A DNA stretch of 21,581 nt, from assembly GCA_038217285.1 (NCBI GenBank), contig JBBQPO010000075.1, positions 1-21,581 on the forward strand, given 5' to 3'. Every line of letters starts with the position of its first letter. Position 1 is the stretch's first letter. This DNA is from Chthonomonadales bacterium (lineage in GTDB: Bacteria > Armatimonadota > Chthonomonadetes > Chthonomonadales > Chthonomonadaceae). The notes beneath the pieces are model-generated. The model worked only from the letters and a program-made list of their open reading frames with translations. It was not told where the DNA came from and made no database searches. Position numbers and translations under genes: made by a program. Shown here in pieces: positions 6,879 to 21,581 of the stretch.

Positions 6879-8012
6879 TCAGGCGAAAACAGCCTGGAAG
6901 GCTTCGGTGGTGCGTAGGTAGTTGAAGGCGGGGTCGTCGCGCACCGCGTCCAGAACCTCCTTACCGCCGAGGTGCAGAGCGCGGGTGAGGCAGAGCAGAG
7001 TACGGGGTGAGTCGCGCTGCCAGGCATACTCGATGGCGAGGGTGCGATAGTCGGCGGCGCGACGGACGGCGTCCAGCTTGTGGGCGAATCGGGCCACCTC
7101 CATGCCATTGGTCGGATCGGTCAGGAAACAGTCGACCCCGAGCTCCCACGCCTGGAACAGGCGGGCATCGGTGGCGCGCTCTTTGGGAACCAGGAACATC
7201 ACCGCGATGTGCCGCAGGCGCGGGTCGAGACGCAGGGTGCGCAGCGCATCGTTTTCGTCGAGTGTACCGAAGGGCGTGTTCAGGATCAGAATGTCCGGAA
7301 CCTGTCGGCGCAGGCGCTGCAGAAGCATCTCCTCGGAAGAGATCACCGAGAGAATAAAATCCTCCGAGCGCAGCGCCGACCGCAGGGTTTTCGTCTGAAG
7401 GGCGTTGGCGTCGGTCAGCGCGATGCGGGTTTTGGGCAACGAGATCGCGGCCTCTTCCGTTGTCGGGTTCGCTATTTGCATTCCCATCCTTTCCAACTCC
7501 TTTCGCATATGCCGCCGTCCACTGTCGAGGCGGCCTTTGATCGTGCTTGCGGGCAGATGCCAGAGCGCGGCCAACTCCTTCTGCGTCATTCCATGCAGGT
7601 AGAACAGGCGAATCGCCAGGCGTAACTCCGGCGGCAGATTTGCCAGCGCCTCTTGCAGGGTAAGACGTTCGAGCGTCTGCTCGGCCGTCTCCATCATGCC
7701 CGTCACTTCCGATTCCGCCGGATCGAGGGGCAGATGGTCTGGCTTGTCGCGGGGCAGCCAGTTACGGCAGGTGTTCAGCGCAATCTGCGTGAGCCAGGCT
7801 GGCAGAGCCTCGATGTTCTGAAGCTGCCTCAGACGGGTGCAGGCGCGCACCAGCGTCTCCTGCGCCATATCCTCCGCGTCCGTCGTGTTGCGCGTCCATT
7901 TCAGACAGAGCGCATAGAGACGCTGCTGCTGACCAGCCAGGAGATCCTCGCAGGCGTTTCGATCTCCCTCCTGGGCCCGTTGCAGTAACTGTGCTGTTCG
8001 CTCCACGGTCAT
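6879..8012 (-). CDS. ECF RNA polymerase sigma factor with a C-terminal pseudo-receiver and TPR-like tail
   Basis: Region 2: DAEDMAQETLVRA, AWLTQIALNTCRN. Region 4: LPPELRLAIRLFYLHGMTQKELA...STIKGRL. A REC-fold segment and a DPAFNYLR tail follow. Start ATG 8012 with GAGGAG at 8029-8024. Confidence 0.85.
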   Translation of the reverse strand: MTVERTAQLLQRAQEGDRNACEDLLAGQQQRLYALCLKWTRNTTDAEDMAQETLVRACTRLRQLQNIEALPAWLTQIALNTCRNWLPRDKPDHLPLDPAESEVTGMMETAEQTLERLTLQEALANLPPELRLAIRLFYLHGMTQKELAALWHLPASTIKGRLDSGRRHMRKELERMGMQIANPTTEEAAISLPKTRIALTDANALQTKTLRSALRSEDFILSVISSEEMLLQRLRRQVPDILILNTPFGTLDENDALRTLRLDPRLRHIAVMFLVPKERATDARLFQAWELGVDCFLTDPTNGMEVARFAHKLDAVRRAADYRTLAIEYAWQRDSPRTLLCLTRALHLGGKEVLDAVRDDPAFNYLRTTEAFQAVFA

Positions 8013-8084
8013 TTTGGCGTCTGCTCCTCGGTTTGCTCTCCCTGATATAGACACACCGAACGCACAAAATGGAAGAGCAGACGC

Positions 8085-8120
8085 AAAAAAAGAGAGGTTC
8101 ATGAGGAACCTCTCTTTTTT
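8085..8120 (-). terminator. Intrinsic (potentially bidirectional) terminator after the DUF1559 gene
   Basis: Perfect 15-bp inverted repeat AAAAAAGAGAGGTTC (8086-8100) / GAACCTCTCTTTTTT (8106-8120). Confidence 0.8.
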
Positions 8121-8197
8121 GCACCGAGTGGCGAGAACGGAGAGCCGTTCTCGCTGACACTCAAAGGGAGTGTTAGCGGGAACCATCAGGAGCGGAA

Positions 8198-9139
8198 TCA
8201 GTTGCACTTCGGATGAGGGCCGTCCTGATCCGTCGTCCAGAGGCAGACATCGCCGACGACGCGGTTGTAGGGAAGCGACTTTGCATGGCCGTCCACAAAC
8301 TGGACGTTGACCTGCTCACTGTGGCGCTGCTTGCCCAGCGGAACCGCCTGGGCGCCGTTTATCGTGCCGCCACTATAGCTCCAGTTGGCGTTGCCGATAT
8401 TTTCCCAGTATTTGTTGTACTGGCCGCCCTGGTCTGTCGCGAACTTCAGTTCAACGCCGCAGTCTGTGCCATTGACACAGTTGGCGGTGGCCTGGTAACC
8501 ACTCGAGTTGGCATCGCCAGGCGCGTTGGCGTCAAACGCCGCGCCGTAATAGGTGGCATCGGAGATGATGATGGTAGAGGAGACGCGCGGAACCGCAGCG
8601 AGCGCGACACTCGCAGGCTGTCCATTCGCGCCGGAGAACTTGCCCGCCGGACTCAGATACATATCGTTGTGGCCGTAACTGTTCTCGCCGCCATACGCGG
8701 TTCCAACGCATCCGGCGCCGGTGCAGTTGGGCGAGGGGCCTGAGGTCGGCGTAAACGCGTTCGGATTGCTCGGGCAGGCGAACACCTGATAGTTCTTGAC
8801 GTAGGGCTGGAGCATAAATATCCAGTAAAAGCGGAACTCGGAACCTCCGGAAAATTTGGCGGCGTCCGGATTGTTGACATACTGCGGACAGATGCTGCCT
8901 GCACCGGGGCCGGGGCAGTTGAAGCGGTGCGGATAGAACTGCTCGTCGTAGTCCTGATTGTACATCGCGGTGGCAGTTCCGATCTGCTTAAGATTGGAAA
9001 TACAGGCGATCTGGCGTGCTTTGCCGCGGGCCTGGGCGAAAACGGGGAAGAGGATGGCTGCCAGGATCGCGATAATCGCGATGACAACCAGCAGTTCGAT
9101 GAGCGTGAATCCGGAACGGGTTCGACGATCTAAAGTCAC
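8198..9139 (-). CDS. DUF1559-type prepilin N-terminal cleavage/methylation protein with an H-X9-DG motif
   Basis: [44 protein letters not shown]-terminal [22 protein letters not shown] before GTG 9139. Confidence 0.93.
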
Positions 9140-10428: not shown

Positions 10429-11475
10429 TTATCGAGAGAGGTCGGGAAGGCCTGCGTGGCCTGTTGGGAGCGCAGGCCCGGTTCCAGGCAGGAACAGGTG
10501 CAGCGACTGCCCGTAGTCGAGGCGGCTGATGACGCGCGCGTTGGCGACGAGTTGGATACGCTGGCGGGAGTCTATGCTCTGCATCTCACCGACGAGGGCG
10601 GCGAACGGCCTGGAGCCATCGTCCGGGATCAGCGTGATGGCATCGCCGGGTTTGAGAGATTTCGCGCGGTCGGCACCGCTCCAGGCGACGGAGATGACGA
10701 CCGAACCGGAGATTGGGTCAAGGTCGTTGATAGAGGCAGGCAGGCCGAGGCGATCCTGATCGGCCCGGTGACGCGCGTCCTGCGCGGCGCGTACGGCGTC
10801 GTCGCCCTTGCGGTCGAGGATTTCGGTCGCCGCGAGCAGGCCGTCCTTTTCGACCAACTGGGTGATAACCTCGTCGCCTTCGCGGAGCGTCTCGATCCCG
10901 CCGGGGCGCTCGCTTTTCCAGATTTTTACGGAAGGGAAGTAGCCGAACTCTTTTGCAATCGTTTTCGTCACCTCGCCCTTGCTGTTCTTCTCCTCCCGCT
11001 GCGTCGTGATAATGCGCTTTGTTGTATCGATCCGGACGACCTTCGCGAACCATCCGTGCCGTGCAGAGACGTGGATCTCGTCCTGCACGGCGCGAGGATA
11101 CGTCCAGTTCCTGGCGTCGTCTACATAGAGGAAGAGCATGACGTGCTGGCCGGGGAAGTAGTCGCTGAGTTCGCCCCAGGAGTCGTGGAAATGGAGCTCG
11201 GTGTCCTGTCGTATCGGCACTTCGCGTATCGTGCCGCTGCCGTCCTGTTTGATGGTCAGGATCTTGCGTTTCAGGTCGATCTTCTGCACGATGCAGAAAG
11301 CGCGGGGCATCTCCCCGAAAAAGTCACACGTCCGCTCGGGCTGCGTTCTCTTGTTTGACGAGCGGCGAGCCTTGAATCGGACGGTGTCCGGCGTTCTCGG
11401 CGACCTCCCGTCCGCATCTCCGTAAGACCGTGTCCCTGCAGGTTCGCCGTCGGATGGCAATATTCCTGGCAACAC
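10429..11475 (-). CDS. Hypothetical protein with repeated beta-strand (OB-fold-like) units; start uncertain (11475, 11472 or 11310)
   Basis: Protein-like composition from MPRAFCIVQKIDLKRKILTIK onward; similar units KVVRIDTTKRIITTQ and SINDLDPISGSVVIS. Confidence 0.6.
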   Translation of the reverse strand: MLPGILPSDGEPAGTRSYGDADGRSPRTPDTVRFKARRSSNKRTQPERTCDFFGEMPRAFCIVQKIDLKRKILTIKQDGSGTIREVPIRQDTELHFHDSWGELSDYFPGQHVMLFLYVDDARNWTYPRAVQDEIHVSARHGWFAKVVRIDTTKRIITTQREEKNSKGEVTKTIAKEFGYFPSVKIWKSERPGGIETLREGDEVITQLVEKDGLLAATEILDRKGDDAVRAAQDARHRADQDRLGLPASINDLDPISGSVVISVAWSGADRAKSLKPGDAITLIPDDGSRPFAALVGEMQSIDSRQRIQLVANARVISRLDYGQSLHLFLPGTGPALPTGHAGLPDLSR

Positions 11476-11521
11476 ACTCCCCCTTTTTGTGTCTAAGCCG
11501 CATAACGGTGTCCTGCTCTCT

Positions 11522-11550
11522 GCACGAACCTGTGCGTTCGAGACGACGTA
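11522..11550 (+). promoter_or_regulatory. ECF-sigma-like promoter of the TPR-ExbBD operon
   Basis: CGAACC-N16-CGTA; shares the 10-mer GCACGAACCT with 6090-6099; GAGGAG SD at 11564-11569. Confidence 0.45.
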
Positions 11551-11579
11551 TTCGCTCTGTGATGAGGAGATCTTGAGAT

Positions 11580-13802
11580 ATGCAAAAGTTGGCGATCCTC
11601 CTGATGGTCGGAACCGTCTGCCTTTCGGCGGGCGCGGTCCGGGCCGACACGCCCGATGAACAACTGGCAGCCGCTTCCGCGCTGTTCGATGCCAAAAAAT
11701 ATCCGGAAGCGGCGCAGAAACTGGATGCGTTTCTGGCGGCCAACCCGAAACACCCTAAAGCGCCGACCGCGGCTTTTGTGCTGGGACGATGTCGTGCGGA
11801 GCTGAAACAGTACGCTCAGGCCGTGCCTGCCTACGAAAAAGCGATCGCCGGCAAAGACCCTGCGATCCTGCCGCTCGCGCAGCTCGGCCTGGGGGAAGCC
11901 GCTTACTACGCCAAGCAGTACGACAAGGCTGCTCCGCCGCTGGAAGCTGTCACCAAGACCAACCTGCGTCCGGAACAGGCCGCTTATGCCTGGTTCTGGC
12001 TGGCGCAGTCCGATTTCAACCTGAAGAAGTATCAGCCTGCCGAAGACGCCTACGAAAAGGTCTACCGCGACTACGGGCGCAGCGAGTTCGCGGATGCGTC
12101 GTACTACGGTGCGGGCCTCTCCGCCCTGCGTCTGAACCGCAGCGACGTCGCCAGGGATCGCTTTCGGGAGTACCTCAATCGGAACCGTAAGTCGCCCGAC
12201 CGACCGCAGGCTATGCTGATGCTCGGGCAGATCGACCTGGAGGCCAAACGCTATGGGGAGGCCCGGTCCGACTTCGAGCGTCTGCTCAACGACGACGCCT
12301 CGAAAACGGCGACCGAGGCGCGCGCGGAGGCGGAGGACGGGCTGATACAGGCCCTGTTGGAGCAGAAAGACTACAATGCGGCCGCGACCCGGCTGGAGTC
12401 GGCCCTCAATCGCCTGCCTGCCACCGACCCGCAGCGCTATCGGGCGGCTCTCAGCCTCGGAAACTGCCGCTACCGACAGCAGCAGTACGAGCCTGCTGCC
12501 AACGCCTACAAGATCGCCGCCGGGGCGACGGAGCCGGAAGTCGCCGTGCAGGGCCTCTACTGGAGCGCCACCGCTGTGCTGGCGCAGAACCGTCCGGCCG
12601 AGGCAGCGCCGCTGCTGGCAAAGTTCGTCAAGACCTATCCGAAGAATCCGCTCGCGCCCAAAGCCCAACTGAAAGCTGCCGGCGCCTACCAGGCGGCGAA
12701 GCAGGGCGATGCCGCTCTCGCCGCCTATCGCCTCCTGGTGACCAACTATCCGACCTCTCCAGAAGCGGCGGAGGCCCGAAAGGGACTGGCCGGAATCGTC
12801 TCCTCGACCAGCGATCCTGTCCAACTCGCCGCCGCGCTGAAGAACGCGCCGCCTGCCGAGCGCGCCAAAGGCATGCTGCGCGTGGCTCAACTCTACTTCG
12901 ATGCCAAAAAGCCGACCGAAGCGACGACCACGCTGACAGAGCTTCTGAAGTCCAAACCGGAAGAAGAGACGCAGGCGGAGGCGCAGTACCTGCTCGGCCT
13001 GATCTACGACAGCGTTCCGAAAACGACGCCTGCCATTATGGCCCTCGCAGAGGCGATCCGCCTGCGGCCTGCGGCCCCGTGGGCCGGAGACGCGCAGGCC
13101 CGGCTGGCCCTGCTCTATCTCGACGCGAAGCAGCCTGCCGCTGCGGAAAAATCGGCCAACGCCTCCCTGATGCTGAAGCCGACGAAAGAGGTGGAGGAGC
13201 AGGTGCGCCGCGCACTGGTACAGGCGCAGATCGATCAGCAGCACTGGGACGCCGCGCTTGCGAGTGATCAGGCTCTGCTCGACATCAGCCCCTCCCCGGA
13301 AACAGCCGCGACTGCCCGCTATCTGCAGGCCTGGATCACGGAGAAACAGGGCAAAACAGACGATGCGCTGGCGCTCTGGACGAAGATCGCGGACGATGGC
13401 GCGAAGAATCTCTACACGTCGGAGGCCCTCTTGCGCGTGGGGAACGCCCGGCTGAAGGCGCAGAAGTACGACGAGGCGCGGCCGCGCTACGAACGCCTGC
13501 TCGCCGATGATGCGAAAAGCCCCTTCGCCACGGAAGCCCGATTCAATCTCGGCAGCACACTCTACAATCTGAATCTGCCCGCTGAGGCCGCCGCTGCCTT
13601 CGACGCCGCAGCGGGTGATAAAGCCGCCGGAGCCTATATACCCACGGGTCTCTACTGGGCGGGAGTCGCCTACGACAAGGCGGGCAAAAAGCCGGAAGCG
13701 ATCCAGCGCCTTGATAAACTCGTCATGCAGTTTCCCCAGCATGAACTCGTCAAAAAAGCAAAAATCCGTCTTGCCGCTCTCAAAGCGGTCAGCGGTCAAT
13801 AA
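11580..13802 (+). CDS. Secreted multi-TPR protein (CpoB/BamD-like TPR pairs)
   Basis: Signal peptide MQKLAILLMVGTVCLSAGAVRA; TPR repeats along the whole length, with loops such as YPKNPLAPKA, YPTSPEAAEA and FPQHELVKKA. Confidence 0.9.
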   Translation: MQKLAILLMVGTVCLSAGAVRADTPDEQLAAASALFDAKKYPEAAQKLDAFLAANPKHPKAPTAAFVLGRCRAELKQYAQAVPAYEKAIAGKDPAILPLAQLGLGEAAYYAKQYDKAAPPLEAVTKTNLRPEQAAYAWFWLAQSDFNLKKYQPAEDAYEKVYRDYGRSEFADASYYGAGLSALRLNRSDVARDRFREYLNRNRKSPDRPQAMLMLGQIDLEAKRYGEARSDFERLLNDDASKTATEARAEAEDGLIQALLEQKDYNAAATRLESALNRLPATDPQRYRAALSLGNCRYRQQQYEPAANAYKIAAGATEPEVAVQGLYWSATAVLAQNRPAEAAPLLAKFVKTYPKNPLAPKAQLKAAGAYQAAKQGDAALAAYRLLVTNYPTSPEAAEARKGLAGIVSSTSDPVQLAAALKNAPPAERAKGMLRVAQLYFDAKKPTEATTTLTELLKSKPEEETQAEAQYLLGLIYDSVPKTTPAIMALAEAIRLRPAAPWAGDAQARLALLYLDAKQPAAAEKSANASLMLKPTKEVEEQVRRALVQAQIDQQHWDAALASDQALLDISPSPETAATARYLQAWITEKQGKTDDALALWTKIADDGAKNLYTSEALLRVGNARLKAQKYDEARPRYERLLADDAKSPFATEARFNLGSTLYNLNLPAEAAAAFDAAAGDKAAGAYIPTGLYWAGVAYDKAGKKPEAIQRLDKLVMQFPQHELVKKAKIRLAALKAVSGQ

Positions 13803-13820
13803 CCTCAGGAGTCACGCCTC

Positions 13821-14474
13821 ATGAAGCTGAATTCGATATTCGGTAATACGCTCATCGCGCAACTGTTCGACAAGGCGGGTTGGGTCGCCATTCCGCTCGG
13901 TATCTGTTCGATACTGGCGATGGGCGTGCTTTTCGAACGGCTCTACACCTACTCGCGGCTGCGACAGGCCGAGGATGCCGCGTATCAGGCGCTGTCTACC
14001 GCCCTGGCGAATGGGGATACCAACCGTATTGCCGATCCTGCCCTCGCTACCGCGCCACTGACACATATCATGAATACGCTGAACTCCCTGCGCGGGGTCA
14101 GCCCGGAATCGATGCAGCAGGCCGCCGACATCGCCTTTGGTGTGCAGCGTCTGCGCCTCCGCCGCTATCTGAGTACCCTGGCGACCATCGGCAACATCGC
14201 GCCCTATATCGGACTGTTCGGAACGGTTCTGGGCGTTCAGACCGCCTTTCAGACCCTCTCTACCGGCGGGGCGGGCGCAGACAAGATGTCGAGTGGTATC
14301 TCCGAAGCGCTGAGCGCCACGGCGCTGGGACTGCTGGTCGCGATCCCCTCCGTCGTCGCTTACAACTTCCTGCTCGGCGAACTGCAGAAACATCTGCTGC
14401 AGATTCAAGGCCACGTCGCGCATCTGATGCCGCTGCTGCACACCCCTCCTGTGCGCGAAAGAGAGAGGGTCTGA
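13821..14474 (+). CDS. exbB: MotA/TolQ/ExbB proton channel protein
   Basis: LATIGNIAPYIGLFGTVLGV..AF and GISEALSATALGLLVAIP. Confidence 0.93.
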   Translation: MKLNSIFGNTLIAQLFDKAGWVAIPLGICSILAMGVLFERLYTYSRLRQAEDAAYQALSTALANGDTNRIADPALATAPLTHIMNTLNSLRGVSPESMQQAADIAFGVQRLRLRRYLSTLATIGNIAPYIGLFGTVLGVQTAFQTLSTGGAGADKMSSGISEALSATALGLLVAIPSVVAYNFLLGELQKHLLQIQGHVAHLMPLLHTPPVRERERV

Positions 14475-14475
14475 C

Positions 14476-14898
14476 ATGCAAGGAGACATCTCTTCCGAAG
14501 ACGAGCCTATGTCGCAGATGAACCTGATTCCGCTGATCGACATCGCGCTGACCATGCTCATCATTATGATGGTCACTACGGTATTCATCAAGAAGCCCGG
14601 CGTCAATCTGACTCTGCCGGAGACCGCGACCCGCGAAGGCGCCCCCGAAACCACGAAGGACCTGACTATCTACATCGGTGTCGATAACAAGATGTATGTG
14701 GACGCGAAGGAACAGAAGCCGGAGCAGGTGCAGGGTCTGCTCATGACGACGGCGAAGAAGAACAAAGACGCGCGTGTCCTGGTGAAAGCCGACCGGGCCG
14801 TCCTGTACGCGAAAGTGATGGAGGTGATGGATATGGCCCGACAGGCCGGACTCACCCACATTACGCTCCCGACCGAGCCAAAAAAGATAACCCCTTGA
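14476..14898 (+). CDS. exbD: ExbD/TolR family protein
   Basis: MNLIPLIDIALTMLIIMMV with the conserved TM Asp; VLVKADR; VMEVMDMARQAG. Confidence 0.93.
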   Translation: MQGDISSEDEPMSQMNLIPLIDIALTMLIIMMVTTVFIKKPGVNLTLPETATREGAPETTKDLTIYIGVDNKMYVDAKEQKPEQVQGLLMTTAKKNKDARVLVKADRAVLYAKVMEVMDMARQAGLTHITLPTEPKKITP

Positions 14899-14902
14899 TT
14901 CT

Positions 14903-15150
14903 CTCGGGAAGAGGTACGAAACGATGCGTGTCGAAAAGCGATGGAATGAATTCCTTCGCTAGAGGCCTTCGGCCGAGTGACCGCCTTCGCGGGCACAAAC
15001 GCGCTGAATGCAACCTTGTCTCTCGTCCGCGAGGACGATACGGCGGAGCCGCGTAGCGAGGGGTGATAACCCCTTGACCGCCCCAAGACGCTGGCTACGT
15101 CCCTTGATTCGGGGTAGCTCAGGAAGAGGTAGGAAACGATGCGTGTCGAA
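14903..15150 (+). repeat. 33-bp direct repeat (RBS plus first four codons) flanking a palindrome cluster
   Basis: CTCGGGAAGAGGTACGAAACGATGCGTGTCGAA (14903-14935) versus CTCAGGAAGAGGTAGGAAACGATGCGTGTCGAA (15118-15150): 31/33 identical. Confidence 0.9.
14937..15098. mobile_element. REP/REPIN-like palindromic element
   Basis: Hairpins AGCGATGGAA-tgaa-TTCCTTCGCT, GTGACCGC-cttc-GCGGGCAC, TCGTCC-gcga-GGACGA and GTAG-CGAGGGGT-gata-ACCCCTTG; CTAC at 15095-15098. Confidence 0.55.
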
Positions 15151-16725
15151 CGCTGGTACTGGCTGGTCGCCTTCTGTCTCGTCTCGTTCTGTGTGCATCT
15201 GGGTATGACACGGTTCGGGCCGGCCTATGGGCTGCCGGCGGCAGCGGAGAAGTCGCCGGAGATCGTGGTGGCGCTCCAGCCTATGCCGGAGCCAGAGAAG
15301 AAGAAGCCGGAGCCCAAACCGCTTCCGAAGCCGAAACCGGTCGTCAAACTGACGCCGCAACCGCAGCCGACACCGAAGGTCGTTCTCGGCAAACGGATGA
15401 CGGCGGCGGTGAAGCCGACCCCGCGCCCGGTCGTTGTCGCGCGCAAAACGGAGCCGGTGGTCGCCCCGAAGCAGCCGCAGCCGATCTCCCCGGCACCGAA
15501 AGTGACGGTCAGTGGGGGCATTGAAGAGATCGAGAACGAAAAGCCTGTCGTTCTCGGCGCTCCCAACGCTCCGAAGGCACAGACTCCCTCCCTGCCGCAT
15601 CTGGCAGTGGCGCGGCGCGAGGCGAATGTGGGCGGCGGAGCGCCGTCGCCCTCCCTCGTTCCGGATGGCAAAGGGGGCGCGTCGGGGCCGGAAGCGCCTC
15701 CGGAAGAGGTGCTCTACAACGGCGGAGGCAAAGGCGGCAAGCAACTGCCGAAAGAGGCGCCTGCGCTCGGCGGCGGAGGCGGCGCTTCGATCCTCTCCGT
15801 CAACAATCCGCTGGCAAAGGATGTTATCGCGGAAGACAAGCCGGGTGCGGGGCCGGGCACGGGCGGCAATGTGGGAACCGGGACCGGCGGCGGAGTCGGC
15901 TTCGCCCGGAGCAAGGGCATCGGCACGAACCCTAACGGACGCCTGCCCCTCGCCTCACTCTCGAACGCCTCCGGCAGCGGCAATGGCAATAGCCGGGGCA
16001 GCGGGACGGGAACCCGTCCGCCCGGCGGTGGCCACGGCACGGGTTCGGAACTGCCGGGAACCGGCGGCGAGGGCCTGGGCTATGGACGCGGCAAGGGCGT
16101 CGGAATTGGCCGCAGCAATGGCGTGAGTGTAGGCGAGGGTGCAGGCGGCAGCGCGTTCACCGGCAAGGGGTCGCCCTCCTTCGGCGACATCGGCGGGCTG
16201 CTGGCCGGAGATCGGAACGGCGGCGGCGGCCTGAATGGTGGAATCGGCGGGCGGGGGACAGGGGCTTCCAACGCGGGCAGCTTCGGCTCGAAAGAGCAGA
16301 TACCGTTCGCGCTCAAAGGCGACATCTACTATCTCGATCCCGGCACCCAACACCTGCCCACCGATTTCAAGGCGCTGAAATCCGTTGGAAGTATCTACGC
16401 GCCGAGCCTGAATATACCTACCCGCAGCTTCATGCAGGGTTTTCCCGGCGTCACCAACCGCTTCGAGTGGTTCGCCATCGACTACAATGGAGAGTTCCGT
16501 GTGCCGATACCAGCCCGGTATCAGTTTCGTCTTACTTCCGACGACGGCTCGAAGCTGTTCATCGACTCGAAACTGGTGATCGATAACGACGGCTTACATG
16601 CCTCTCGTATGAAAGAGGGTAGCATTCGCCTGAGATCCGGCAAACACACCATCGAAGTGCAGTATTACCAGGGGCCACGCGATCAGGTGGCGCTGGTACT
16701 GGATGTCAAGGCGGAAGCGGAATGA
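15139..16725 (+). CDS. TonB-like membrane-anchored Pro/Gly-rich protein with a C-terminal PA14 domain
   Basis: TM helix WLVAFCLVSFCVHLG (S-x3-H); PEPEKKKPEPKPLPKPKP linker; Gly-rich core; PA14 motif FAIDYNGEF...YQFRLTSDDGSKLFID..VIDNDGLH...GKHTIEVQYYQG. Confidence 0.85.
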   Translation: MRVERWYWLVAFCLVSFCVHLGMTRFGPAYGLPAAAEKSPEIVVALQPMPEPEKKKPEPKPLPKPKPVVKLTPQPQPTPKVVLGKRMTAAVKPTPRPVVVARKTEPVVAPKQPQPISPAPKVTVSGGIEEIENEKPVVLGAPNAPKAQTPSLPHLAVARREANVGGGAPSPSLVPDGKGGASGPEAPPEEVLYNGGGKGGKQLPKEAPALGGGGGASILSVNNPLAKDVIAEDKPGAGPGTGGNVGTGTGGGVGFARSKGIGTNPNGRLPLASLSNASGSGNGNSRGSGTGTRPPGGGHGTGSELPGTGGEGLGYGRGKGVGIGRSNGVSVGEGAGGSAFTGKGSPSFGDIGGLLAGDRNGGGGLNGGIGGRGTGASNAGSFGSKEQIPFALKGDIYYLDPGTQHLPTDFKALKSVGSIYAPSLNIPTRSFMQGFPGVTNRFEWFAIDYNGEFRVPIPARYQFRLTSDDGSKLFIDSKLVIDNDGLHASRMKEGSIRLRSGKHTIEVQYYQGPRDQVALVLDVKAEAE

Positions 16726-16791
16726 GGCCGGGCAGTCGGGCCTTAGAGTCAAATCTCCGCTCGGGCCGCAGGCTACAGGAGAGTAAACACA

Positions 16792-18387
16792 ATGCGCGCT
16801 GAACGCTGGTACTGGTTGATCGCTTTTTGCGTGGTGTCGTTCCTCGTTCATGTCGGGGCTGCATGGACGGGGCCCGGCTACGGAATGTCTGGTGTCAGGG
16901 CGCGAGATCCTGAAATCGTGATCTCGCTGCAGCCGGAGAGCGCTGCGCCGAAACCGGAGGTCAAGTCGGTCGCGAAGCCCAAGCCGATTCCACCCCCGCT
17001 CGCCAAGACGCCGACGCGGTCCCTCGAGAAGACGGCCGTCAGTCACCGTGTGATCACGGGCAATAGGCCCACCGTTGTGAAGGCACCGCGGGAGCATGCT
17101 CGGAAGACTGGGGCTCCTGCCGCAGGCAGTCTTGCCATGCCCGACGACAAGCCAGCGCCGCTCGGCCTCCCAACCGCCCCCCATGCTCCGCCGCAGCCAC
17201 GCAGCCATATCGCGCTGAACAACGTGCATGCCGGCGGCGGAACGCCATCGCCCTCGGTCATTCCGGACGGCAAAGGTGGCGCGCCCGGACCGGAAGCTCC
17301 GCCCGAAGAGGTGCTCTTCACAGGCGGCGGCAAGGGCGGCAAGCAACTGCCGAAGGAAGCGCCCCGAATAGGCGGCGGAGGCGGCGCTTCGATCCTTTCC
17401 GTGGAGAATCCCCTGGCGAAGGAGAGTAGACCCGAGGACAAGCCCGGCGTCGGCCCTGGCACAGGAGGCAACCTCGGCGCGGGCAGCGGGGGCGGAGTCG
17501 GTTTTGCCAGGGGCAAGGGCATCGGCACGAACCCCAACGGCAAAGTGGCCGTCGGTTCCTTCTCCAATCAGGTCGGGCAGGGGAACGGCAACGCCAGTGG
17601 GAGCGGCGCGGGCACTCGCGCGCCCGGCGGTGGGCACGGCACCGGTTCGGAACTGCCCGGCACCGGGGGTGAATCGACGACCGGTTACGGCCGCGGTAAA
17701 GGAACTGGGATCGGCAGCGGTGCGACGAGCGGCACGGAAGGCAAAGGCAGTCCTTCGTTTGGCGATGTCGCCGGCCTGCTCGGCGGCAAGGGCCGGGGTG
17801 GGGGCGGAACCGGGCAGGGCGGCGGAGGAGACGGGACTCGCGGCGGCGTCTTCGGCACTAAACCCAAAGCGGACAGCAAGGGAGCCCTCCATATCGTCTA
17901 TGTCCTCGATGTCTCCGGCAGCATGCGCGAAGGCAATAAGATCGGCAAAGCGAAAGAGGTGCTCAAGGAGGCGCTGCTCGGGCTGAAAGAAGGCGATACG
18001 TTTAATATCATCAGCTTTAGCCGGGAGGTGCGGCGGCTCTATCCGGATATGCTGCCTGCCGACCCGGATATAGTACAGTCCGCCATGGAGTATGTGGATA
18101 GGATGAGAATGGGCGACGGCACCAATATCTCGGCAGCGATGGATATCGCCCTTAAATACGAGGGCGTCTCGCAGATCTATCTGATGTCCGATGGCGAGCC
18201 GAATGCCGGTATCGAAGATTTTCAGCAGTTGCGCGACTATATTCACGACCACAACAAGAGTAATGTCCGTATCTCGACGATGGCGCTCTGTCTGGGCGAA
18301 AAGTATAAGGGCGAACCCCTGATGCGCGGCATTGCCGGCGACACACAGGGCACCTACAGCTACATCAATATGAAACTCATTCGGTAG
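16792..18387 (+). CDS. TonB-like membrane-anchored Pro/Gly-rich protein with a C-terminal vWA domain
   Basis: TM helix WLIAFCVVSFLVHVG (S-x3-H); the same Gly-rich core; vWA MIDAS residues VYVLDVSGSM, GDGTN, LMSDGEPN. Confidence 0.88.
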   Translation: MRAERWYWLIAFCVVSFLVHVGAAWTGPGYGMSGVRARDPEIVISLQPESAAPKPEVKSVAKPKPIPPPLAKTPTRSLEKTAVSHRVITGNRPTVVKAPREHARKTGAPAAGSLAMPDDKPAPLGLPTAPHAPPQPRSHIALNNVHAGGGTPSPSVIPDGKGGAPGPEAPPEEVLFTGGGKGGKQLPKEAPRIGGGGGASILSVENPLAKESRPEDKPGVGPGTGGNLGAGSGGGVGFARGKGIGTNPNGKVAVGSFSNQVGQGNGNASGSGAGTRAPGGGHGTGSELPGTGGESTTGYGRGKGTGIGSGATSGTEGKGSPSFGDVAGLLGGKGRGGGGTGQGGGGDGTRGGVFGTKPKADSKGALHIVYVLDVSGSMREGNKIGKAKEVLKEALLGLKEGDTFNIISFSREVRRLYPDMLPADPDIVQSAMEYVDRMRMGDGTNISAAMDIALKYEGVSQIYLMSDGEPNAGIEDFQQLRDYIHDHNKSNVRISTMALCLGEKYKGEPLMRGIAGDTQGTYSYINMKLIR

Positions 18388-18429
18388 TCCGGTAGTAGAG
18401 AAGGACCGATAGGATCTCAGGAGGAGAAG

Positions 18430-20460
18430 ATGCGCTTCCTTCGTTGTCTCTTGGTGCTGGCAGGAAGCTGCCTGACCGCCCCGATCCCGGCGCAGGCGCC
18501 CCAACCGCACTTCGTTGATGTGCCGGACTCCACGACGCCGATATCGGGGCAGTTTACCCTGCGCATCGGGATGGAGGCGCGATCACGCACGATCCGTCCT
18601 CTGCCCGCTCCTCCCCGTGCGGGGAAAGGAGGCGTGCGCGTCACGGTCTATCTGGACGGCAGCCTGTTTCTGAGCGACGAGGCGCCGCTGACCTACACCT
18701 GGGACACGCGCACGGTACGGAACGGGCAGCACACGCTTCTGCTGCGCGGCCTCGATGCGACCGGCCATACCGAGCAGACGCTCGAAAAAATTATGCTTCT
18801 CATTGCCAACGACAGCCCCGTCGTTGTGCCCACGCCAGGACGCGACCGTCCCAATGCACCCATCGCCGGACGAACCCGTTACCCGGAACGTAATTTCGGC
18901 AGTCCCTCTGCGGCAGCGGTCGCCCCCGAACGTCGCGTCCTTGCTATCCTGCATCCGCAGCAGAGCAGCCTCTCGCTCACGGCGAACGCGCATCCGTTGG
19001 AGGTGCATGCCACGGCGCTGAATCTGGTGGGGGACCGACTCTGTATCGGTCGGCCGGACGGCGGTCTGACCCTCTACGATGGCAAAAGCCATCGCGGGCA
19101 GACGCTCCGACTGCCGCAGCCGACCGGCAAAGTCGTCGCCATTCAGAGCGACGCTGAAACGATCATCTGGCTGACCGACCCGGTGTCGGCCCCTGCGCCC
19201 TCACCCACGACCTCCGACCCCGTGCGTGATTCGACGCCGCCGACCCTGCGTCAGCTCTTCGTCTATCGGCCTGCGGAGCGGACGCTGACCAGCTTCTATC
19301 TCGGGGAAGCGAACACCTTCGCCGCCACCACCCGCGTCACCCCCTGGCAGTCCGGCATCGCCCTTTTCGCCGGGAGCGCCAACGGCCTGCTCGACCCGGC
19401 CACCGGCGAGATCGTCAATCTGGAGTCGCAGTTGCCGCCGGGATCGACCGACAGCGCCTCTCGCTACTCCGCGCTCTATCTGGCTGCGGACGGGAGCGAT
19501 GGGCTGCTGGTGCGTGCCGACACCCGCCTCGACGACGGACCCGGCGCAAACGGCAACATCTCCCGCCTGCGGCTGGCCCTGTGGCGCCTGCACGACGCGA
19601 CCTGGACCTCCTCCGGCGTTTTTCTCTCCGCAGCCACCGATACGTGGCGGCTCGTCCCGCTGGCGGTGACGCCGCAGGGCGTCTGTTCCGTGGAAAATAG
19701 GACGGGGCTGCACGTCGGTCTCAACGAGGGACTGGGGCAGTCGCAGCCGCTCACGCTGCCTTTCCGCAACTACTTCCAGTCGCAAAACGCGCAGGTCGCG
19801 TTGGGAGGGCGGCATCTCTGGACGACCGACGGCGCGGTGCTCTACCACACCGATCTCGACAGCACCACCTCGGACGCGTTTCTGCCCTGGAACGACAAAG
19901 GTCTCCGAATCCTGGCCTTCGCTCCCGAAAAGAAGGACGGCGTCTGGCTGGCCACCAGTCATGATGTTCGCCATCTTTCCCTGAACCACCCCGATCCCAA
20001 ACTCGGCTATGCCGGGCTCATCAAGTTCCGGCTGGGCACGGAGTCCGCCACGCCCACACGGCCAACGGACCAGAAGCTGGCGAGCCTCGTGGCGGAGTGG
20101 CAGGGCGTGCCGTACAAGTGGGGCGGCAGCACCAAACAGGGCGCCGACTGCTCTGGCTTTGTCATGGCGGTGCATCAGCAGTTCGGCGTCTCCCTGCCTC
20201 GCGACACGGTCGGCCTGCGCGACAGCACCAAGGGCGCGCTCATCCACGATGAGCTTCAGTATGGAGACGTCCTCGTCTATCCCGGCCACTGCGCCATCTA
20301 CATCGGCGACGGCAAAACGGCGGAGACCGTGGACAAATCCGTCAGCTACGCCTCCGTCTGGTACCACGACGAGGTCGTCGTCCGCCGCTTCCTCCACACC
20401 CAACAGAGTCAGCCGCCTGACTCAAATACAAAGCACCGATCCAAACAACGCTCTCGCTAG
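18430..20460 (+). CDS. Secreted NlpC/P60 (C40) peptidase with an N-terminal Ig-like domain and a beta-rich middle region
   Basis: Signal peptide; Ig-like VTVYLDG...APLTYTWDTRTVRNGQHTL; C-terminal GVPYKWGG...GADCSGFV...YGDVL..PGHCAIYIGDGKTAE. Confidence 0.87.
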   Translation: MRFLRCLLVLAGSCLTAPIPAQAPQPHFVDVPDSTTPISGQFTLRIGMEARSRTIRPLPAPPRAGKGGVRVTVYLDGSLFLSDEAPLTYTWDTRTVRNGQHTLLLRGLDATGHTEQTLEKIMLLIANDSPVVVPTPGRDRPNAPIAGRTRYPERNFGSPSAAAVAPERRVLAILHPQQSSLSLTANAHPLEVHATALNLVGDRLCIGRPDGGLTLYDGKSHRGQTLRLPQPTGKVVAIQSDAETIIWLTDPVSAPAPSPTTSDPVRDSTPPTLRQLFVYRPAERTLTSFYLGEANTFAATTRVTPWQSGIALFAGSANGLLDPATGEIVNLESQLPPGSTDSASRYSALYLAADGSDGLLVRADTRLDDGPGANGNISRLRLALWRLHDATWTSSGVFLSAATDTWRLVPLAVTPQGVCSVENRTGLHVGLNEGLGQSQPLTLPFRNYFQSQNAQVALGGRHLWTTDGAVLYHTDLDSTTSDAFLPWNDKGLRILAFAPEKKDGVWLATSHDVRHLSLNHPDPKLGYAGLIKFRLGTESATPTRPTDQKLASLVAEWQGVPYKWGGSTKQGADCSGFVMAVHQQFGVSLPRDTVGLRDSTKGALIHDELQYGDVLVYPGHCAIYIGDGKTAETVDKSVSYASVWYHDEVVVRRFLHTQQSQPPDSNTKHRSKQRSR

Positions 20461-20749
20461 ACCCGCGCTTTTGGGGTATCCAGATCCCTCTTGACCTGTT
20501 CCAACTGTTTCAATGCGGGTTCGGTTGTCTTTGGGGGTCCCCAAGAATGCCCATATTGTTGTGTAATTTCGCTTCTGCTGCCTCTATCCGCTCATCGGGG
20601 GCAGGACTCAACTAAATGCCGTTTCAGTCAGAAGGCGGAAGGAGATAGCCGAACTCCCATGGAATCACCCTGGTAAGATCGTCGGGTACTCGCTTTCTAC
20701 AGGCGAGCGTAATCTGACGGCAAGCATACCACACGGAGGGGAACTACCG

Positions 20750-21581
20750 ATGAGAGCGTATAGAGGGATGTCGGCCGTGCTGTTCGGAACGCTGCTCCTG
20801 TTTTTGAACGCACGCGTCGCGACACAGACCGCAGGGGCAGGGCAGCCGCCGCAGAACTCGACCGAGTGGTCGAGCTATGGCGGAGGTCCCGATGGAATTC
20901 GATACTCGCCACTCACTCAGATAGACCGCTCGAACGTCAGCCGGCTTCAGGTCGCGTGGACCTACGATTCCGGTGAGGGGCCGGGCGGTACCCAGTGCCA
21001 GCCGCTCGTGGCCGGGGGCGTGCTCTATGCCGTCACCCCCCAGCACAACGTGGCTGCGCTGGACGCCGCCACGGGGCACGTGATCTGGAAGTTCGAGTCC
21101 GGCATCACCGGGCGCGGCCCGAACCGCGGAGTCACCTACTGGACCGAGGGCAGCGAGCGGCGCGTCTTTGTAGCCGTCACGCAGTTTGTCTATGCACTGG
21201 ATGCAGCCACCGGCAAGCCGATCCCGAGCTTCGGCACGAATGGGCGCATCGACTTGCGCGAGGGGGTGGGGCGCGATCCGGCCAAGCAGTCCGTCATCCT
21301 GACGACCCCGGGGGTCGTCTTCAAGGACCTCCTGATCGTTGGCGGCCGCGTGTCCGAGGGGCTGCCATGCACTCCCGGCGACATCCGCGCCTATGATGTC
21401 CGTAGCGGCCGGATGCGCTGGTCGTTCCACACGATTCCCCATCCGGGCGAGTTTGGCTACAAAACATGGCCCCGACTGGCATGGAAGGTCTCCGGTTCGG
21501 CCAACAACTGGGCAGGAATGACTGTGGATGCCGCGCGTGGAATGGTGTTCGTGCCGACCGGATCGGCGGCCAGCGACTTCT
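20750..21581 (+). CDS. PQQ-dependent (glucose/quinate-type) dehydrogenase, truncated by the window end
   Basis: Translated by hand because it is not in the ORF track: signal peptide, then EWSSYGGGPDGIRYSPLTQIDRSNVSRLQVAWTY, ALDAATG..IWKF, FGTNGRIDL, PGDIRAYDVRSG..RWSFHTIP, NNWAGMTVD..RGMVFVPTGS. GGAGGG SD upstream. Confidence 0.9.
   Translation, partial: MRAYRGMSAVLFGTLLLFLNARVATQTAGAGQPPQNSTEWSSYGGGPDGIRYSPLTQIDRSNVSRLQVAWTYDSGEGPGGTQCQPLVAGGVLYAVTPQHNVAALDAATGHVIWKFESGITGRGPNRGVTYWTEGSERRVFVAVTQFVYALDAATGKPIPSFGTNGRIDLREGVGRDPAKQSVILTTPGVVFKDLLIVGGRVSEGLPCTPGDIRAYDVRSGRMRWSFHTIPHPGEFGYKTWPRLAWKVSGSANNWAGMTVDAARGMVFVPTGSAASDF

Follow-up and report, generated by a model that had tools for sequence, protein, structure and literature searches.

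How energy is delivered to the outer envelope of diderm bacteria other than Proteobacteria is largely obscure, and a locus in a Chthonomonadales bacterium of the phylum Armatimonadota, described here, bears on this question. It couples an ExbB/ExbD-type motor and a TPR protein to two TonB-like transducers that end in PA14 and vWA domains. The gliding machinery Agl-Glt of Myxococcus similarly brings together a TolQR-like motor, TPR proteins, TonB-like proteins, and the vWA adhesin CglB; in that machinery, TonB_C domains belong to GltG and GltJ, and CglB is a lipoprotein of its own in the outer membrane. Both vWA and PA14 are classic adhesin domains, and PA14 often binds carbohydrate. The most similar described architecture is that of the "vWA force transducers", which were predicted downstream of TPR, tolQ-like, and tolR-like genes (PMC12204202, Mol Biol Evol 2025, section 8). 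In the Tichowtungia-type protein, a transmembrane (TM) helix with an SHLS motif is followed by a motor box, a domain II of approximately 100 residues, and a vWA head. Such proteins were listed from Proteobacteria, Planctomycetes, Verrucomicrobia, Bacteroidetes, and Rhodothermaeota, and AlphaFold 3 (AF3) predicted their docking on the motor via the conserved His. They are without a known phenotype, gliding having been raised as a possible role (PMC12204202).

The locus under study occupies positions 11580–20460 of a 21,581-nt stretch (contig JBBQPO010000075.1, assembly GCA_038217285.1), the whole of which is referred to as the window. Its six genes, g1 to g6 (Table 1), probably specify a motor that runs on protons and acts through TonB-type transducers whose heads have been swapped. 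The first three genes together with g5 form a four-gene core, which is, by its architecture, a member of the predicted vWA transducer class. A preliminary description, made from the sequence alone, had not recognised the arrangement as a characterised system; no experimental characterisation exists, but the vWA-ended form had already been proposed. That work was the only publication found on vWA force transducers, and none was found on a PA14-ended TonB-like protein; a preprint that mentions vWA and TolQ was considered as related work and proved unrelated. In PMC12204202 itself, the term PA14 occurs 0 times, and Armatimonadetes figure only as a phylum in which TonB has been reported and once in the references. 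The PA14-ended form of transducer thus appears to be undescribed.

The best evidence for a head swap comes from the N-terminal module of g4 and g5. These proteins are paralogues, 56% identical over residues 1–351 and unrelated beyond, and their genes are joined by long DNA repeats of 77%–78% identity. Each begins with a TM helix containing S16-x3-H20, continues with approximately 330 disordered residues (a Pro/Lys-rich and then a Gly-rich linker), and closes with its head. A search of 1.84 billion representative proteins (E ≤ 0.001) with a profile restricted to residues 1–80 returned 91 matches. The 38 matches of at least 299 residues were scanned with Pfam, the 53 shorter ones being taken as mostly fragments and left out. 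Among the 38, the head was vWA in 31, PA14 in four, TonB_C in two, and of no family in one. The TonB_C-ended matches are P0212 and P0214, with profile E values of 7.6e-6 and 3.2e-5 and Pfam TonB_C E values of 1e-18 and 4e-15, respectively. P0214 opens with ERWY...S-x3-H...EIEV, the same pattern as in the g4/g5 module, and its pairwise alignment with g5 spans 49 residues at 29% identity (E 6e-4). Because the N-terminal profile alone retrieves vWA-, PA14-, and TonB_C-ended proteins, the module is probably a genuine TonB-type coupling module whose C-terminal head has been exchanged. One TonB-type module with at least three heads is direct evidence for modular evolution of force transducers. Three of the PA14-ended proteins with the same N-terminal module (P0177, P0184, and P0210) carry a PA14 subtype judged by eye to be GLEYA-like, which suggests that PA14 heads have been gained more than once.

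Within the module, the S-x3-H motif, given in the preliminary description as the energy-coupling motif of TonB and TolA, is conserved. In an N-terminal alignment of 20 sequences, S16 is present in all 20 and H20 in 19, and both are invariant in an alignment of 16 full-length vWA-type homologues (42%–76% identical to g5). The N-terminal alignment also shows an invariant L9 and at least 90% conservation of E4, R5, W6, W8, and F12. Following the helix, the stretch EI(E/V)VxLxP, in which V44, L46, and P48 reach at least 90%, is a candidate motor box.

The C-termini are PA14 and vWA rather than TonB_C: the TonB_C, TonB_2, and TolA families of Pfam gave no match to g4, g5, or their first 150 or so residues, even at E ≤ 10. 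For g5, AlphaFold2 (16-row alignment; mean predicted local distance difference test [pLDDT] 55.7) gave a model with a TM helix at residues 4–26, disorder at 31–363 (pLDDT < 50), and a vWA fold at 364–531 (pLDDT > 90). Foldseek against the PDB returned vWA domains only, for example inter-alpha-inhibitor heavy chain 1 (E 1e-14); going by this model, g5 holds no hidden TonB_C fold, a possibility raised in the preliminary description. The residues of the metal ion-dependent adhesion site (MIDAS) of g5, namely D373, S375, S377, T444, and D467, are invariant in all 16 full-length homologues, as are dozens of Gly/Pro positions and short motifs (NPLA-type) in the Gly-rich linker region of approximately 200 residues. 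The best score of an ESM Atlas search with this linker region was 0.75, under the lead threshold. A predicted complex of two ExbD periplasmic domains (residues 38–140) with g5 residues 27–80 is evidence neither way (score 0.02, mark 0.32).

The PA14 end of g4 is 27%–29% of the protein and is 57%–63% identical to proteins carrying PA14 together with the peptidoglycan-binding domain OmpA_C. Two of these, attributed by name to Longimicrobium and Byssovorax, run from a signal peptide through PA14 to OmpA_C. Among solved structures, the PA14 sequences nearest to this head are carbohydrate-sensing modules of anti-sigma factors.

Genetic coupling of transducer and motor is seen across related genomes. 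A genome scan built on Armatimonadota sequence patterns, which place distant members out of reach, gave 77 loci (L001–L077). Of these, 28 (L001–L027 and L053) match beyond the vWA domain and were examined as relatives by tblastn and inspection of open reading frames (ORFs). Where labels are present, they name metagenome-assembled genomes (MAGs) of Chthonomonadales, Chthonomonadaceae, and Armatimonadaceae, besides two with an Actinomycet- label and one "uncultured bacterium". Three of the 28 end at a contig edge and are uninformative; of the 25 that remain, 22 have exbD as the immediate upstream neighbour of a transducer gene. A TPR gene precedes exbB in 19 of the 20 loci that are informative on this point. 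The window has one exbD, as does each colinear locus. A PA14 paralogue, by contrast, occurs in only 4/28 loci (L001, L002, L004, and L024), all close relatives with proteins 74%–80% identical to g4, and an NlpC/P60 gene in only 3/28 (L001, L002, and L004). Elsewhere, the genes 3′ of the vWA gene are unrelated or on the opposite strand (e.g., DXP synthase, GNAT acetyltransferase, and response regulators). The conserved unit in Armatimonadota is therefore four genes (TPR, ExbB, ExbD, and vWA transducer), and the six-gene operon is this core with two additions of the window's own clade. Of the earlier interpretation, TonB/TolA-type transducers that lack TonB_C and are tied by gene order to a TPR protein and a motor of the ExbBD type have stood up to the comparison, whereas the unity of the six genes as one conserved system and the link to gliding have not.

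The remaining 49 loci (L028–L077 without L053; mostly Planctomycetota and Bacteroidales) were rejected as relatives: they match in the vWA domain only, and tblastn found no ExbB, ExbD, or TPR gene in them. The ORF was read in 45, and none opens with the g4/g5 N-terminal module; many start with a signal-peptide-like segment, and the start calls of others are uncertain.

The motor proteins retain the channel residues attributed to them in the preliminary description. T135, T167, and P176 of g2 are invariant in 17/17 ExbB sequences, and E162 is found in 16/17; the TM aspartate D22 of g3 is invariant in 18/18 ExbD sequences. We take D22 to correspond to D25 of Escherichia coli ExbD, and the conserved g2 residues to correspond to ExbB T148, E176, and T181, essential there. 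The solved chains nearest to g2 are TolQ (E 2e-16) and ExbB (E 1e-13), and those nearest to g3 are ExbD (E 4e-12) and TolR (E 4e-7). The best NCBIfam models are tolQ for g2 (TIGR02796; 104.5 bits against a cut-off of 221) and tolR for g3 (TIGR02801; 89.4 bits against 127.3). By these sequence comparisons, g2 and g3 sit between the Ton and Tol types.

The TPR protein g1 matches TPR families of Pfam (TPR_16, E 8e-46) and the NCBIfam model tol_pal_ybgF (TIGR02795) at 190 bits, above the cut-off of 90.1, as eight repeated stretches. Its homologues have signal peptides of the signal peptidase I type, no conserved lipobox Cys, and a conserved mature N-terminus. The best 120 of 258 homologues are all 666–764 residues long and at least 46% identical to g1, and many were named "TolA-binding protein" automatically by the annotation pipeline. 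The transducer in distant loci is 35%–49% identical. That g1 is better conserved than the transducer is more in keeping with a housekeeping partner than with an accessory factor for adhesins.

Table 1. Features of the locus within the 21,581-nt window.
Feature	Coordinates	Strand	Description
g1	11580–13802	+	740 aa; secreted TPR protein with CpoB/YbgF-type repeat units; opens the operon
g2	13821–14474	+	217 aa; ExbB/TolQ-type proton-channel subunit; Pfam MotA_ExbB (PF01618), E 4e-30
g3	14476–14898	+	140 aa; ExbD/TolR-type subunit, one copy; Pfam ExbD (PF02472), E 1e-25
Intergenic insertion	14899–15138	+	holds a duplicate of the g4 start region and mini-ORF 14924–14962
g4	15139–16725	+	528 aa; TonB-like transducer; Pfam PA14 at aa 444–517, E 2e-14
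g5	16792–18387	+	531 aa; TonB-like transducer; Pfam VWA_3 at aa 367–523, E 2e-15
g6	18430–20460	+	676 aa; secreted; Big_7 and NlpC/P60 at aa 559–643, E 8e-18

From these features, a mechanism can be proposed. ExbB and ExbD, to judge from family membership and conserved residues, would form a proton motor in the inner membrane, on which g4 and g5 may dock via the N-terminal TM helix with S16-x3-H20 and then the candidate motor box. The disordered residues would carry the swapped head across the periplasm (a vWA domain with an intact MIDAS in g5, PA14 in g4), and the motor would exert its pull on anything bound by these heads. The most conserved partner, the secreted CpoB-like TPR protein, is a probable scaffold or target. 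A branch directed at peptidoglycan may be added in the window's clade by the PA14 head together with the NlpC/P60 enzyme.

Several points weigh against this proposal. All members of the system are known from sequence and models alone. TolB, Pal, and a TonB-dependent receptor are neither encoded in the window nor recurrent in the related loci. The kinship with TonB_C proteins hangs on two matches of approximately 40 bits, and the N-terminal profile, when run against the PDB at E ≤ 10, gave three chance-level matches (E 0.8–6.6), none of which is to TonB or TolA. Of the SHLS motif, only S and H are kept in the 20 aligned N-termini, with no conserved L or S at what we take to be the remaining positions. 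The candidate motor box forms no strand in the g5 monomer model (pLDDT 43–47). Both g2 and g3 fall under every NCBIfam equivalog cut-off. Among the relatives, L017 is without a TPR gene, and 3/25 loci (L003, L006, and L025) hold a transducer paralogue without motor genes. Finally, vWA and PA14 as adhesin domains suit a role in adhesion equally well.

The NlpC/P60 protein g6 is an addition of the window's own clade and lies outside the core. Besides the window's own protein, 13 homologues at 64%–79% identity were found, together with one marginal match (E 2.8e-4). Residues D573, C574, S575, G576, H620, and E632 are invariant in 12 sequences, and we take C574, H620, and E632 to be the NlpC/P60 catalytic triad. 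The g6 model, built from a 12-row alignment, is poor (mean pLDDT 54); it shows an immunoglobulin-like domain at residues 26–125 and an all-beta region at 170–535 with generic beta-propellers as best matches, while the NlpC/P60 part is modelled at low confidence. The propeller-like region, considered with TolB in mind, is itself of low confidence and is fused to NlpC/P60. Two g6-like proteins each are found in the pairs P0127/P0131 and P0129/P0130, whose members have a longest contig of the same size (20479 and 16572, respectively), and the g6-type gene may thus be duplicated in some relatives.

All six genes lie on the plus strand and, as first described, are close-set save for the repeat-bearing gap after exbD (spacings, in order, of 18, 1, 240, 66, and 42 nt). 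The operon starts with g1 because the gene upstream reads on the opposite strand: its minus frame (10429–11475) is 78% identical to the counterpart in L002, compared with 52% for the overlapping plus frame. In the 240-nt gap, the ribosome-binding site, start codon, and first four codons of g4 are present as a second copy, and a mini-ORF of 12 codons and a stop results; a 33-nt repeat, 94% identical between its copies, lies at 14903–14935 and 15118–15150. The insertion is common to L001 only (1556–1744) and is absent in L002, L004, and L024. Its predicted fold is no better than that of shuffled sequences (z −1.47). A hairpin within the mini-ORF shows two compensatory differences between the window and L001, and beyond the mini-ORF lies a second, GC hairpin. 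The insertion could be a leader, an attenuator, or a recombination scar between the paralogues. Promoter and terminator scans gave no signal above shuffles, Rfam gave only two sub-threshold chance matches over 11300–20800, and PADLOC assigned no defence family to any of the g1–g6 proteins.

Elsewhere in the window, the plus-strand ORF at 934–1527 encodes a PemK/MazF-type toxin domain (residues 83–190, E 4e-24), its true start probably lying later. On the minus strand (6879–8207 and 8198–9139), an ECF-type sigma factor fused to a response-regulator receiver domain overlaps the end of a DUF1559/N-methyl pseudopilin-like gene.

The related loci vary in several ways. When 155 flanking ORFs from 18 neighbourhoods were compared all against all, a single family was recurrent (at least three loci), an M56-vWA fusion. 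Its gene lies just upstream of the TPR gene and on the same strand in three distant loci, L020 (3685–5514), L027 (4130–6421), and L053 (2234–4513); a BlaR1-type M56 membrane peptidase was detected in two of the three, with a masked stretch in L027. In the Armatimonadaceae MAG that carries the full module in L018, a second, motorless transducer paralogue follows same-strand DUF1549/DUF1553, DUF1501, and PPC-domain genes (L025, 4719–11416). The operon is seemingly split in a near relative, whose contigs L003 and L024 belong to one MAG: exbD and the PA14 gene close the operon on one contig and are followed by an opposite-strand ORF, and the vWA paralogue stands apart, with no NlpC/P60 gene beside it and with genes for LolA-like and PMT_2 glycosyltransferase proteins after it. 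Unexplained gaps of approximately 0.8 kb between the PA14 and vWA genes of L004 (5825–6641) and of approximately 1.3 kb between the TPR gene and exbB of L015 (7532–8834) were also seen.

As to what such a motor would do, comparison with described systems gives some guidance. With TolQ-TolR-TolA and CpoB, the locus shares an operon that couples a motor, a transducer, and a TPR protein with CpoB/YbgF-type repeats, and TolQ is the best-scoring solved relative of g2. It differs from Tol-Pal in that there is no TolA C-terminal domain; g2 and g3 stay below the TolQ and TolR cut-offs; and the TPR protein is a large one, with eight repeat units, encoded first in the operon. TolB and Pal are likewise lacking, with none among the 19 window ORFs scanned (the six of the locus and 13 others) and no such recurrent neighbour in 18 loci. 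A Tol-like role, in which the module would maintain or remodel the outer membrane and the layer of peptidoglycan, is tentatively favoured over motility or nutrient import, albeit at less than even chances. It is favoured because the CpoB-like partner is conserved, no outer-membrane transporter or gliding gene recurs, the PA14 head of g4 is kin to OmpA_C-linked PA14 domains, and an NlpC/P60 gene lies next to the transducer genes; moreover, Fimbriimonas ginsengisoli, a cultured organism of the phylum that may or may not carry the module, is described as non-motile (PMC4072686). In a more elaborate and rather doubtful form of this proposal, the module would be the Armatimonadota counterpart of Tol-Pal with interchangeable heads, in which the TPR protein reads the NPLA motifs, PA14 grips glycan strands, and the propeller-NlpC/P60 protein remodels the wall under force. 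If the module is indeed the phylum's Tol equivalent, it bears on the evolution of envelope-stabilising systems.

Agl-Glt of Myxococcus, to which the preliminary description had drawn an analogy, has in common with the locus that TolQR-like motor, TPR, TonB-like, and vWA proteins occur together. On this model, the motor would drag vWA and PA14 adhesin heads on a surface-exposed partner, as Agl-Glt does with CglB, and the intact MIDAS of the vWA head, the PA14 head (both being typical of adhesion or glycan binding), the pseudopilin-like gene in the window, and the mention of gliding in PMC12204202 are in keeping with it. Both heads are, however, anchored at the inner membrane, and the neighbourhoods have no recurrent Glt-like gene or outer-membrane conduit. 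Glt homologues are absent (the NCBIfam cut-offs are 450 bits for GltC and 225 for Tgl, and the matches score 15.6 and 51.2, respectively), and there are no conserved extra neighbours beyond the core. With the non-motile Fimbriimonas also counting against it, an adhesion or gliding motor is unlikely, and the analogy finds no specific backing.

TonB-ExbB-ExbD shares with the locus the channel residues of the motor, the S-x3-H TM helix and Pro-rich linker of the transducer, and an N-terminal profile that matches two TonB_C proteins; it differs in that g4 and g5 are without TonB_C, that no receptor lies nearby, and that the locus has a conserved TPR partner. In a Ton-like import system, the swapped heads would energise an unlinked outer-membrane transporter or capture periplasmic glycans or polymers for uptake. 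The N-terminal module common to genuine TonB_C proteins and the nearest solved PA14 domains, carbohydrate-sensing as they are, speak for such a function. So does the description of tonB genes as often unlinked to receptor genes (PMC12204202). On the other side, no vWA MIDAS is known to engage a TonB box, and a tightly conserved TPR partner is a Tol-like and not a Ton-like trait. No TonB-dependent receptor or plug domain is encoded in the window, in line with the preliminary description, and none recurs in the 18 neighbourhoods. Import is thus also a rather unlikely function.

It is highly improbable that there is no mechanical coupling at all and that g4 and g5 are anchored periplasmic binding proteins, Bat-like or scaffold-like, with ExbBD serving a canonical TonB elsewhere: the three loci with motorless paralogues, a linker far longer than the span of the periplasm requires, and the resemblance of the g5 vWA fold to Bacteroides BatB (3ibs, E 2e-11) would fit, but S16 and H20 are near-invariant in an otherwise variable TM helix, and exbD keeps its place directly upstream of the transducer. 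BatA-E/MoxR operons do share membrane-anchored vWA and TPR proteins with the locus, and BatB is among the best structural matches to the g5 head; their partners MoxR ATPase and DUF58, however, are not among the window ORFs scanned, and an ExbBD motor and an S-x3-H TM helix are found instead.

A motor that acts through TonB-type transducers with exchanged heads is closest to the class predicted in PMC12204202. The two have in common the Ser/His TM helix, the disordered linker, a candidate motor box, the vWA head (g5), and the TPR-ExbB-ExbD genes upstream. The Armatimonadota locus differs in having one tolR-like gene (g3) and not a heterologous pair, a g5 linker of approximately 330 residues with a conserved Gly-rich region compared with approximately 100, a PA14-ended second transducer, and an NlpC/P60 gene. 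A class of transducers predicted only in 2025 is thereby extended, by architecture, to a phylum on the Terrabacteria side.

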